Shown: piece by piece, positions 25,018-51,330 of the stretch | How the letters are laid out: the number at the start of each line of letters is the position of its first letter | Position numbering within the stretch: position 1 is the first letter of the stretch | Origin: Escherichia coli | GTDB taxonomy: Bacteria; Pseudomonadota; Gammaproteobacteria; Enterobacterales; Enterobacteriaceae | Direction: 5' to 3' (one strand) | Length of the DNA stretch: 64,000 nucleotides | Assembly: GCF_044324875.1 (NCBI RefSeq) | Contig: NZ_CP172185.1 | The notes under the pieces: model-generated | Database searches by the model: none | What the model saw: the letters and a program-made list of their open reading frames with translations, nothing else | Told to the model about the DNA's origin: nothing | Program-made: the position numbers and the translations under genes

Positions 25018-25230
25018 TTGTCCCGTAAAATGACAGGAATTGTCAAAACCTTTGATCGCAAAAGCGGCAAAGGATTCATTATCCCCTCCGACGGTCGTAA
25101 AAAAGTCCAGGTCCATATTTCCGCATTCACTCCCCGCGACGCAGAAGTGCTTATACCAGGATTACGTGTGGAATTTTGCCGCGTAAATGGCCTGCGAGGA
25201 CCAACAGCGGCAAATGTTTATTTGTCTTGA
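25018..25230 (+). CDS. cspH: Cold shock-like protein CspH
   Basis: 70 aa [70 protein letters not shown]. Confidence 0.9.
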
Positions 25231-46226: not shown

Positions 46227-46736
46227 ATGTACACTTCAGGCTATGCACATCGTTCTTCGTCGTTCTCATCCGCAGCAAGTAAAATTGCGCGTGTCTCTAC
46301 GGAAAACACTACAGCCGGGCTTATCAGTGAAGTTGTCTATCGCGAAGATCAGCCCATGATGACGCAACTTCTACTGTTGCCATTGTTACAGCAACTCGGT
46401 CAGCAATCGCGCTGGCAACTTTGGTTAACACCGCAACAAAAACTGAGTCGCGAATGGGTTCAGGCATCTGGGCTACCCTTAACGAAAGTAATGCAGATTA
46501 GCCAGCTCTCCCCTTGCCACACCGTGGAGTCAATGGTTCGCGCTTTACGCACGGGCAATTACAGCGTGGTGATCGGTTGGTTGGCAGATGATTTGACTGA
46601 AGAAGAGCATGCTGAACTTGTTGATGCGGCAAATGAAGGTAACGCTATGGGGTTTATTATGCGTCCGGTAAGTGCATCCTCTCACGCCACGAGACAACTT
46701 TCCGGGCTAAAAATTCACTCTAATTTGTATCATTAA
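46227..46736 (+). CDS. sulA: SOS cell-division inhibitor SulA
   Basis: 169 aa [58 protein letters not shown]... Confidence 0.95.
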
Positions 46737-47092
46737 GTAAATTTAGGATTAATCCTGGAACTTTTTTTGTCGCCCAGCCAATGCTTTCAGTCGTGACTAA
46801 TTTTCCTTGCGGAGGCTTGTCTGAAGCGGTTTCCGCGATTTTCTTCTGTAAATTGTCGCTGACAAAAAAGATTAAACGTACCTTATACAAGACTTTTTTT
46901 TCATATGCCTGACGGAGTTCACACTTGTAAGTTTTCAACTACGTTGTAGACTTTACATCGCCAGGGGTGCTCGGCATAAGCCGAAGATATCGGTAGAGTT
47001 AATATTGAGCAGATCCCCCGGTGAAGGATTTAACCGTGTTATCTCGTTGGAGATATTCATGGCGTATTTTGGATGATAACGAGGCGCAAAAA

Positions 47093-48145
47093 ATGAAAAA
47101 GACAGCTATCGCGATTGCAGTGGCACTGGCTGGTTTCGCTACCGTAGCGCAGGCCGCTCCGAAAGATAACACCTGGTACACTGGTGCTAAACTGGGCTGG
47201 TCCCAGTACCATGACACTGGTTTTATTCCTAACAATGGTCCGACCCACGAAAACCAACTGGGTGCAGGTGCTTTTGGTGGTTACCAGGTTAACCCGTATG
47301 TTGGCTTTGAAATGGGTTACGACTGGTTAGGTCGTATGCCGTACAAAGGCGACAACATCAACGGCGCATACAAAGCTCAGGGCGTTCAGCTGACCGCTAA
47401 ACTGGGTTACCCAATCACTGACGATCTGGACATCTACACTCGTCTGGGTGGTATGGTATGGCGTGCAGACACCAAGGCTAACGTACCTGGTGGCGCATCT
47501 TTTAAAGACCACGACACCGGCGTTTCTCCGGTTTTCGCTGGCGGTGTTGAGTACGCGATCACTCCTGAAATCGCTACCCGTCTGGAATACCAGTGGACCA
47601 ACAACATCGGTGACGCACACACCATCGGTACTCGTCCGGACAACGGCATGCTGAGCCTGGGTGTTTCCTACCGTTTCGGTCAGGGCGAAGCAGCTCCAGT
47701 AGTTGCTCCGGCTCCAGCTCCGGCACCGGAAGTACAGACCAAGCACTTCACTCTGAAGTCTGACGTTCTGTTCACCTTCAACAAAGCAACCCTGAAACCA
47801 GAAGGTCAGGCTGCTCTGGATCAGCTGTACAGCCAGCTGAGCAACCTGGATCCGAAAGACGGTTCCGTAGTTGTTCTGGGTTACACTGACCGCATCGGTT
47901 CTGACGCTTACAACCAGGGTCTGTCCGAGCGCCGTGCTCAGTCTGTTGTTGATTACCTGATCTCCAAAGGTATCCCGGCAGACAAGATCTCCGCACGTGG
48001 TATGGGCGAATCCAACCCGGTTACTGGCAACACCTGTGACAACGTGAAACAGCGTGCTGCACTGATCGACTGCCTGGCTCCGGATCGTCGCGTAGAGATC
48101 GAAGTTAAAGGCATCAAAGACGTTGTAACTCAGCCGCAGGCTTAA
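47093..48145 (+). CDS. ompA: Outer membrane protein A (non-K-12 loop allele)
   Basis: Signal peptide [21 protein letters not shown], beta-barrel, APAPAPAP hinge and C-terminal OmpA domain; about 350 aa. Confidence 0.95.
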
Positions 48146-48159
48146 GTTCTCGTCTGGTA

Positions 48160-48189
48160 AAAAACCCCGCTGCTGCGGGGTTTTTTTTG
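48160..48189 (+). terminator. ompA rho-independent terminator
   Basis: aaaaaccccgctgctgcggggtttttttt. Confidence 0.85.
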
Positions 48190-48900
48190 TGCACAGAAAA
48201 CCCCCAGCTAGGCTGGGGGTTCCGGAAAGCTTTCAGCTTTGAGCCAGTTATTAAAACCCCTTTTGATTTGTTAAAACACCTTGCGGTCTGGCAACTGCAA
48301 GTGTCAAACAAGAAATCAAAAGGGGGTCCCAATGGGGAACGAAAAGAGCTTAGCGCACACCCGATGGAACTGTAAATATCACATAGTATTTGCGCCAAAA
48401 TACCGAAGACAGGTGTTCTACAGAGAGAAGCGTAGAGCAATAGGCTGTATTTTGAGAAAGCTGTGTGAGTGGAAAAGTGTACGGATTCTGGAAGCTGAAT
48501 GCTGTGCAGATCATATCCATATGCTTGTGGAGATCCCGCCCAAAATGAGCGTATCAGGCTTTATGGGATATCTGAAAGGGAAAAGCAGTCTGATGCTTTA
48601 CGAGCAGTTTGGTGATTTGAAATTCAAATACAGGAACAGGGAGTTCTGGTGCAGAGGGTATTACGTCGATACGGTGGGTAAGAACACGGCGAAGATACAG
48701 GATTACATAAAGCACCAGCTTGAAGAGGATAAAATGGGAGAGCAGTTATCGATTCCCTATCCGGGCAGCCCGTTTACGGGCCGTAAGTAACGAAGTTGGA
48801 TGCAAATGTCAGATCGTGTGCGCCTGTTAGGGCGCGGCTGGTAAGAGAGCCTTATAGGCGCATTTGAAAAACCTCCGGCTATGCCGGAGGATATTTATTC
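48190..48900 (+). mobile_element. IS200-like insertion sequence (IS200/IS605 family); boundaries approximate
   Basis: Roughly 0.7 kb block between the ompA terminator and the matP 3' end, encoding a Y1/HuH transposase and carrying subterminal hairpins cccccagctaggctggggg (48201..48219) and cctccggctatgccggagg (48872..48890). Confidence 0.8.
48332..48790 (+). CDS. tnpA: IS200 transposase TnpA (Y1 HuH)
   Basis: 152 aa MGNEKSLAHTRWNCKYHIVFAPKYRRQVFY...HIHMLVEIPP...; the HxH motif and conserved Tyr are typical of IS200/IS605 TnpA. Confidence 0.9.
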   Translation: MGNEKSLAHTRWNCKYHIVFAPKYRRQVFYREKRRAIGCILRKLCEWKSVRILEAECCADHIHMLVEIPPKMSVSGFMGYLKGKSSLMLYEQFGDLKFKYRNREFWCRGYYVDTVGKNTAKIQDYIKHQLEEDKMGEQLSIPYPGSPFTGRK

Positions 48901-48931
48901 GTCTTTAGAAAATTGAACTGACTTTCGTCAG

Positions 48932-49384
48932 TTATTCCTTACCCAGCAATGCCTGCAGATCCTGCTTCAAAGAAGACATTTTATTCGCGTATTTCTCTTT
49001 GTTTTCCGCATCTTCAATCAGCTGAACAATCGTTTCAGAAAGCGTTTTACCGCGACGCTGCGCAAGACCAGCCAGACGTTGCCAGACAATAAATTCCAGA
49101 TCGATCGATTTTTTGCGCGTATGCTGGTGTTCCGCATTAAAATGGCGCTTCCGTCTGGCCCGAATGGTTTGCTTCATGCGATTGACCAGTTCCGGATTCA
49201 TATGCTTGTCAATCCAGCCATTTACCAGCACGGGTTCATTTTCCAGCGAGAGCAACACATCGACGGCTTCCTGGGCGGCACTGGCTTCTATGTAACGGGT
49301 GATTAACTCCCCTTCGCGATGCTTCTTCACCAGATACTTCCATTTCCAACCGCTTTCAAGATTTTCAAGTTGTTGATATTTCAT
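48932..49384 (-). CDS. matP: Macrodomain Ter protein MatP
   Basis: 150 aa [52 protein letters not shown]... Confidence 0.95.
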
Positions 49385-49569: not shown

Positions 49570-51330
49570 TTGACCATTACGAAACTTGCATGGCGTGACC
49601 TGGTTCCTGATACCGATAGCTATCAGGAAATATTTGCTCAGCCACATTTGATTGACGAAAACGATCCTTTATTCAGTGATACTCAACCGCGACTACAATT
49701 TGCGCTGGAGCAGTTGCTGCATACGCGAGCATCCTCCTCTTTTATGCTGGCGAAGGCCCCGGAAGAGTCTGAGTATCTGAATCTTATTGCCGATGCCGCG
49801 CGTGCGCTACAAAGCGATGCAGGCCAACTGGTGGGCGGTCACTATGAGGTTTCCGGGCACACCATCCGCTTACGTAACGCAGTGAGTGCAGATGATAATT
49901 TTGCGACTTTAACGCAAGTTGTCGCTGCCGACTGGGTAGAAGCGGAGCAACTCTTTGGCTGCCTGCGCCAGTTTAATGGCGACATTACCCTGCAGCCAGG
50001 TCTGGTGCATCAGGCAAATGGCGGTATTCTCATCATCTCTTTGCGTACACTGCTGGTGCAACCTCTGCTGTGGATGCGGCTGAAAAATATCGTTAACCGC
50101 GGGCGTTTTGACTGGGTTGCGTTTGATGAGTCGCGCCCTCTCCCCGTCTCTGTGCCTTCGATGCCATTGAAGCTGAAAGTCATTCTGGTAGGCGAACGCG
50201 AATCATTGGCTGATTTCCAGGAGATGGAACCAGAGCTTTCAGAGCAGGCTATTTATAGCGAATTTGAAGATACTCTGCAGATTGTCGATACGGAGTCAGT
50301 AAGCCAGTGGTGTCGCTGGGTAACATTGACCGCAAGACATAATCACTTACCTGCACCGGGAGCGGATGCCTGGCCGGTACTTATCCGCGAAGCAGCCCGC
50401 TACACCGGTGAACAAGAAACACTTCCGCTTAGCCCGCAGTGGATCCTCCGCCAGTGTAAAGAGGTCGCCTCCCTGTGCGATGGCGACACCTTCTCCGGCG
50501 AGCAGATAAACTTAATGCTACAGCAGCGTGAATGGCGCGAAGGTTTCCTCGCTGAACGCATGCAGGATGAGATTCTTCAGGAGCAAATCCTGATTGAAAC
50601 CGAAGGCGAACGCATCGGGCAAATTAACGCCCTTTCGGTCATTGAATTTCCGGGTCATCCACGCGCTTTTGGCGAACCTTCTCGCATTAGCTGCGTTGTG
50701 CATATTGGCGATGGTGAATTCACCGACATCGAACGCAAAGCGGAGCTTGGCGGCAATATCCATGCGAAAGGGATGATGATCATGCAGGCGTTCCTGATGT
50801 CGGAACTACAGCTTGAGCAACAGATCCCCTTCTCAGCATCGCTGACATTTGAGCAGTCATACAGTGAAGTGGATGGCGATAGTGCCTCGATGGCTGAACT
50901 CTGCGCCCTGATAAGCGCCCTCGCCGATGTGCCGGTGAATCAGAGTATCGCTATCACAGGTTCAGTCGATCAGTTCGGTCGTGCCCAGCCGGTCGGTGGT
51001 TTAAATGAGAAAATCGAAGGCTTCTTTGCTATTTGCCAGCAACGTGAGTTAACCGGGAAACAAGGTGTCATTATCCCCACTGCTAACGTTCGCCATTTAA
51101 GTCTTCCCAGTGAACTGTTGAAAGCGGTAGAGGAAGGCAAATTCACCATCTGGGCAGTAGACGATGTGACTGACGCACTGCCGTTATTATTAAATCTGGT
51201 GTGGGATGGCGAAGGCCAAACGACGCTGATGCAAACCATCCAGGAACGTATCGCGCAAGCATCGCAACAGGAAGGACGTCACCGTTTTCCATGGCCATTA
51301 CGTTGGCTGAACTGGTTTATTCCGAACTGA
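49570..51330 (+). CDS. ycbZ: Lon-like protease YcbZ
   Basis: 586 aa; C-terminal Lon protease domain with motifs [17 protein letters not shown] and TGSVDQFG. Confidence 0.9.

Follow-up and report, generated by a model that had tools for sequence, protein, structure and literature searches.

An ompA allele of the OmpA-long type in an Escherichia coli chromosome, with old surface-loop codons

The ompA gene found in a 64,000-nucleotide stretch of an Escherichia coli chromosome (contig NZ_CP172185.1; hereafter the window, with positions counted from its first letter and + denoting the strand as given) raises the question of how far its product departs from the OmpA of K-12, and whether the departures, most of which are in surface-exposed loops, are recent changes or older alleles shared with other strains and species. 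An earlier note on this DNA had placed all of the differences from K-12 OmpA in the extracellular loops and had proposed that the allele is informative for strain typing.

The open reading frame at 47093..48145 (+), with 350 codons and a stop, is the chromosomal ompA orthologue, based on its translation, its Pfam profile, its alignment to MG1655 ompA and its synteny. The product has the OmpA domains PF01389 (266.7 bits, residues 23-199), PF00691 (84.2 bits, residues 226-321) and PF13505, and the gene lies between sulA (46227-46736) and matP (48932-49384, - strand), an order of sulA-ompA-matP that is also that of K-12. Along its full length, the window aligns collinearly and at about 98% identity with the 1.00-1.08 Mb portion of K-12, the orientation being reversed. 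By alignment, the 21-residue signal peptide (47093..47155, +) is the same as in K-12, as are the stem, loop and T-run of the intrinsic terminator (48159..48189, +). The sulA-ompA intergenic region (46737..47092, +; 356 bp), which holds the ompA promoter and 5' UTR, has two substitutions relative to K-12, each located over 210 nt before the start codon. Since no other change is present in this region, the expression signals are essentially K-12-like, and what the allele alters is the protein rather than how it is controlled. The possibility of an assembly or sequencing error was considered and rejected, based on the fact that the frame is intact and that the same protein is found in thousands of independent records.

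The MG1655 ompA gene (NC_000913.3) served as the reference and was aligned as both protein and DNA, which revealed changes in loops 1, 2 and 3. The variable codon of loop 1 (47228..47230, +; codon 46, mature Pro25) is CCT rather than the K-12 AAC (Asn), with three of three bases changed. In loop 2, codons 87-89 (47351..47359, +; mature residues 66-68) are GAC AAC ATC (DNI) where K-12 has AGC GTT GAA (SVE), and eight of the nine bases of this patch are unlike K-12. The variable block of loop 3 (47477..47509, +) has 11 residues, four more than the SNVYGKN of K-12, and contains 12 bases that are absent from K-12 (GGC GCA TCT TTT, encoding GASF; 47492..47503, +). Relative to the K-12 stretch TKSNVYGKNHDTG, loop 3 has S108A, Y111P, this 12-nt GASF insertion and N114D, resulting in a stretch of 17 residues. 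The comparison with K-12 in the earlier note was right: loops 1-3 are non-identical to those of the fetched MG1655 gene, and its readings of FINNNG to FIPNNG, KGSVENG to KGDNING and TKSNVYGKNHDTG to the 17-residue stretch are each exact.

The further proposals, that the differences are confined to the extracellular loops and that the barrel and periplasmic domain are unchanged, hold in part. All 100 of the non-loop barrel codons are the same as in K-12 at the protein level, and no protein change was found in loop 4 (19 residues, including H151), the signal peptide or the linker. The periplasmic domain is not unchanged, however, as codon 228 (47774..47776, +) reads ACC (Thr) instead of the AAC (Asn) of K-12, which corresponds to N203T (mature K-12 numbering) in the periplasmic/dimerisation domain. 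Of the 12 altered or inserted codons, 11 are within the 75 loop codons of the 329 mature codons (Fisher p = 4.6e-7), a clustering far beyond chance with loop boundaries that, here and in the dS partition below, we take to be those of the UniProt P0A910 topology. The window allele therefore differs from K-12 OmpA by N25P, SVE to DNI, SNVYGKN to the 11-residue block (+4 residues) and N203T, and shares with it the locus, signal peptide, strands, loop 4, linker, proximal regulatory region and the remainder of the periplasmic domain. Position 203 is a described N/T polymorphism (PMC5413513, PMC9560509), and positions 25 and 66-68 are inside segments (22-28 and 65-68) that are termed "highly mobile" by Pautsch & Schulz (as quoted in PMC5413513).

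The allele is one that is already known, as its sequence is that of Power's ompA2 class, Liao's (III, beta) and the "OmpA-long" isoform. The outer-loop pattern III of Liao et al. (2017; PMC5413513) comprises P25, DNI, an 11-residue loop 3 and H151, and the window has Pro25, Asp-Asn-Ile at 66-68, the long loop 3 and His151, the last of which distinguishes pattern III from pattern II (Asn151). Likewise, the C-terminal pattern beta of the same authors, A175, T203 and G251, is present in the window as A200, T228 and G276 (precursor numbering). In addition to the pattern III loops and these three residues, the window has I93, Y129 and M161 in common with the III/beta proteins of Liao (PMC5413513, PMC9560509). 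The occurrence of III and beta together is a minority combination, found in three of 78 Liao isolates based on the intersection of the published strain lists. According to Power et al. (2006), as related by Liao, ompA2 comprises patterns II and III and represents 43% of 524 isolates; Power's sequenced ompA2 strain is pattern II, with N151 in loop 4, whereas the window has H151. Pattern III has also been noted in a septicaemic O78 strain and in CFT073 (Gophna et al., 2004, as summarised by Liao). By comparison, the OmpA of K-12 MG1655 (P0A910; PDB 1BXW, 1QJP, 9FZC) is "OmpA-short", with pattern (I, alpha).

A structure is available for this isoform. The barrel is identical at 174 of 174 residues, all four loops included, to chain A of PDB 9FZD, with 1BXW and 1QJP as close matches, and it is through this identity to the solved 9FZD that we assign an eight-stranded barrel with four extracellular loops. 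The 9FZD_A chain is OmpA-long with the nanobody Nb39, while 9FZC_A is OmpA-short, the K-12 version, with Nb01 (Commun Biol 2025, PMC12259851). There is no barrel difference between the window protein and 9FZD; the crystal construct is without the periplasmic domain, so T203 is outside its coverage.

The ompA gene was found in all but one of 5,426 complete E. coli genomes, and the loop 1-3 DNA segment of the window was matched at ≥99% identity in 1,142 of these records and at 95-99% in a further 1,079, representing approximately 41% of the total. The remaining records have K-12-like or other short forms. The value of 41% agrees with the published frequencies of 43% (Power) and 41% (Liao). The exact 350-residue protein is that named "MULTISPECIES: porin OmpA [Enterobacteriaceae]", which is listed in 20,603 assembly-index blocks. 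When the full gene is compared as DNA, 370 records of the complete E. coli genomes match it at 99% identity or more, the best of them reaching 99.9% and none 100%. Ten loci encoding the identical protein have four synonymous haplotypes, all with CCG at codon 236, as in K-12, while the window has CCA (Pro236) through a private synonymous base at 47800 (+).

The OmpA-long allele in the window is, then, real but ordinary, and its typing power is coarse. The earlier proposal of value for strain typing stands to the extent that the locus sorts E. coli genomes into a small number of broad classes; the value is modest for a class that is present in ~41% of complete genomes, whose exact protein is encoded by at least four synonymous haplotypes, and for which only a loose correlation with phylogroup has been reported (PMC6995065, PMC9560509). 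Over 24 kb (window 36000-60000) the closest of the 5,426 complete E. coli genomes is only 99.3% identical, and K-12 is ~98% identical; by this measure the source strain would belong to a lineage that is unrepresented among the complete RefSeq genomes searched. The linker/dimerisation string ATVG has been associated with phylogroup F (Nielsen et al., 2020), and in a comparison that covers positions 175, 203 and 251, the window agrees with this string (A175, T203, G251). The nearest strains and the ATVG pattern together hint that the strain may lie on the D/F side.

To gauge the age of the loop differences, dS and dN between the window and K-12 were estimated by the Nei-Gojobori method. The loop codons have a dS of 0.34 and a dN of 0.079, compared to 0.086 and 0 for the non-loop barrel codons and 0.026 and 0.003 for the linker plus C-terminal domain. 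The 33 flanking genes have dS values of 0.00-0.165 against K-12. Since the loop dS is several-fold above that of both the gene remainder and the neighbouring genes, the loop codons are old, deeply diverged alleles rather than the outcome of recent point mutation, and the E. coli gene in which they sit is ordinary in other respects. Several of these codons are changed at two or three bases relative to K-12. Positive selection was also sought in the loops of the window/K-12 pair, but the dN/dS of ~0.23 does not exceed 1 and provides no direct signature; an argument from positive selection was dropped on this value and replaced by that of old alleles. Separately, ycbZ (49570-51330) has 13 non-synonymous and 19 synonymous differences from K-12, and its dN of 0.0097 is among the highest of the 33 neighbouring genes and the top value among the longer ones.

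A degenerate-pattern scan with one genome per species provided 110 ompA loci in which the loops of relatives and outgroups could be compared. On the Escherichia side, the loop 2 DNI motif is present in E. albertii, in two unnamed Escherichia lineages and in two other E. coli-labelled genomes. It is also present in Salmonella enterica subsp. arizonae and diarizonae, in two Silvania species and, within Citrobacter, in three C. amalonaticus, C. sedlakii, one C. freundii-labelled genome and two further genomes. The DNI carriers have a loop 3 with the window's length and an NxPGG motif, with the exception of MOD1-EC7003 (Escherichia), which has a different, longer loop 3, and in E. albertii, C. amalonaticus and C. 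sedlakii the 11-residue block is exactly that of the window. In none of the outgroups in the 110-locus scan was SVE or the short NVYG-KN found; the more distant Yokenella alone has a different short loop. The OmpA proteins of E. albertii, C. amalonaticus, C. sedlakii and S. arizonae/diarizonae thus resemble that of the window in having DNI with a loop 3 of the same length, but the E. albertii, Citrobacter and Salmonella genes diverge from it by 2-11% elsewhere and most have N151 in loop 4 rather than H151.

The amount of divergence in the loops is informative. Between the window and E. albertii, one of 36 bases differs in loop 2 and two of 63 in loop 3 (2.8-3.2%), compared to 2.3-3.5% in the rest of the gene. 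For C. amalonaticus the corresponding values are 0-2 of 36 and 4 of 63 bases (0-6.3%), and 5.2-8.4% in the rest of the gene. Between the window and K-12, by comparison, there are differences at 9 of 36 bases in loop 2 and 8 of 51 in loop 3, and K-12 is similarly distant from every sequence compared, the window included (25-31% in loop 2 and 14-29% in loop 3). Outside the loops, ompA divergence tracks the species relationships. The sharing extends to codons: GAC AAC ATC is used in 12 of the 12 relatives whose codons were compared, and GCT AAC GTA CCT GGT GGC in loop 3 is common to Escherichia and C. amalonaticus. For loop 1, the ATT CCT of the window also occurs in Salmonella arizonae/diarizonae and in Escherichia E1V33 and E69; residue 25 is thus P in the two Salmonella subspecies, while E. 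albertii and Citrobacter have D or N there. With Pro found in these Salmonella subspecies and Asn (ATC AAC) in Citrobacter, both states are old.

The presence of the long form in outgroup genera implies that it is K-12 that is derived, its loop 3 having been shortened and its loop 2 patch replaced. We consider it likely that DNI and the long loop 3, along with both the Pro and the Asn of loop 1, predate the split between Escherichia and Salmonella/Citrobacter, and that the short form of K-12 is a derived patch replacement specific to E. coli (eight of nine loop 2 bases and a 12-nt deletion in loop 3) which is now present in ~60% of the species, the loop types being a long-lived, partly trans-species polymorphism. 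The "lengthening" of the loop in the earlier note is accordingly correct as a comparison, in that loop 3 is four residues longer than that of K-12, but its polarity is the reverse of that implied. We regard this as a correction of perspective and not as a discovery.

Considering all of these data, we are confident that the best explanation as a whole is an ordinary chromosomal ompA of the OmpA-long type, with old loop alleles, a long form shared with sister species and genera, a derived short form in K-12, and both classes presumably kept by selection and recombination. The usual eight-stranded barrel and periplasmic peptidoglycan-binding domain are conserved, and the tips of loops 1-3 alone are remodelled. 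Diversifying, frequency-dependent pressure from phages, colicins and host immunity may be what enables both classes to persist at approximately 40:60, and homologous recombination may shuffle loop segments among lineages. Balancing selection is suggested by the combination of elevated dS, trans-species sharing and the intermediate frequencies of both classes. Against the explanation, Nielsen et al. argue that the way the alleles are distributed is mostly accounted for by the history of the chromosome. In a rival reading, the allele would be a neutral marker of chromosomal lineage (phylogroup) whose loop differences persist by descent only and have no functional effect, and OmpA patterns do follow phylogroup to a fair degree. 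We consider a neutral marker unlikely, however, based on the fact that the loop dS of 0.34 is several-fold over both the local range (0.00-0.165) and the gene remainder, that the same loop codons are found in other species and genera, and that in the literature isogenic swaps of natural variants shift phage host range, nanobody binding and surface properties.

The identity of the 11-residue loop 3 in E. albertii, C. amalonaticus and C. sedlakii would also be expected if the long-loop segments had been recently imported by horizontal transfer from a Citrobacter, Salmonella or E. albertii donor. Yet the divergence of loops 2 and 3 from each outgroup approximately equals that of the rest of the gene, a proportionality which is the pattern of vertical descent and argues against recent import. 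Outside the loops, in addition, both the barrel and the C-terminal part are typical of E. coli, and the allele class occurs in ~41% of E. coli genomes, making such an import very unlikely. Convergent evolution of the loops among enterics, a reading that Gophna et al. (2004) imply in their title, is conceivable because receptor-related selection acts on the loops, but the identity reaches synonymous codons (GAC AAC ATC and GCT AAC GTA CCT GGT GGC), and this shared codon choice favors common descent to the extent that we view convergence as extremely improbable. We therefore retain the explanation of old loop alleles, with K-12 as the derived form.

The functional significance of the loops, proposed in the earlier note as phage and colicin receptor sites and immune targets, is supported by the literature. 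Mutations conferring phage resistance are at OmpA residues 25, 70, 110 and 154 (work of Morona et al. cited by PMC12032242). The latter study describes eight natural OmpA variants in one MG1655 background, of which phages with type-1 Gp38 infect eight of eight and those with type-2 Gp38 three of eight, the type-2 restriction being ascribed to particular versions of loops 2 and 3. Recognition of loop 1 by colicins U and Y has been reported, and reduced phage lysis was linked to ompA2 by Power et al. (2006), according to PMC9560509. Nb01 is strictly specific for the short isoform and Nb39 for the long isoform, with each contacting all four loops (PMC12259851).

The tips of loops 1-3 form the surface patch met by phage adhesins, colicins and antibodies, and by inference the allele should change which of these dock, relative to K-12, while interactions that depend on loop 4 should stay unaffected. 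The barrel that bears the epitope has the same sequence as the crystallised antigen, so binding of Nb39 by this allele may be predicted with confidence. We expect the strain to stain with, or be captured by, OmpA-long reagents such as Nb39 and not by OmpA-short ones, and to be non-permissive to phages whose adhesins require K-12-type loops 2 and 3. The allele may escape OmpA vaccines or phage cocktails for which K-12 was the model. If the long form is indeed ancestral, cross-reaction of Nb39-type reagents may extend to E. albertii, C. amalonaticus and C. sedlakii, as these have an identical loop 3. The practical value of these expectations is limited.

Elsewhere in the window, the gfcABCDE-etp-etk (group-4-capsule) genes and the K-12 IS1D, which occupy ~9 kb in K-12, are absent, and appA is followed directly by cspH (~25228-25239). 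This absence is ordinary, since the same appA-cspH junction is common to 1,675 of the 5,426 complete E. coli genomes.

A 712-bp insertion sequence of the IS200C type is located at 48190..48901 (+), with tnpA at 48332-48790 (PF01797, Y1 transposase; its PGAP homologues are named IS200C). It is directly 3' of the T-run of the ompA terminator and ends 30 bp before the matP stop, in a position where K-12 has a spacer of 75 bp. The element is not part of the ompA allele, only its immediate neighbour. The junction between the ompA terminator and IS200 was found in none of the 5,426 complete E. coli genomes, and none of the ten identical-OmpA loci has an IS there; by these counts, the junction is, as a marker, much more specific to the strain than is the ompA allele itself. 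There were 198 records with ≥80% coverage of the junction query, which were rejected as look-alike sites; one that was inspected lies after the rpmBG terminator. In the 24-kb comparison with complete genomes, one match with "100% coverage" was rejected as joined pieces, that strain having no IS200 at the site.

The left end of the IS200 (TGCACAGAAAACCCCC...) abuts the terminator T-run in the window (48159-48196) as GGGGTTTTTTTTG followed immediately by TGCACAG. In HCP5S3_I2 (L125:1200-1240) there is the same IS200 geometry after the rpmBG terminator, with GGGGTTTTTTGTTG followed immediately by TGCACAG. The similar terminator-plus-IS200 matches in the 198 records suggest that the element may prefer to insert just 3' of a hairpin and T-run. 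At the right end of the element there is a hairpin, CCTCCGGCTATGCCGGAGG (48866-48901, - strand), which is followed by a T-run on the - strand. This hairpin could be a candidate replacement terminator for the convergent matP, which is now apart from the bidirectional ompA/matP terminator.
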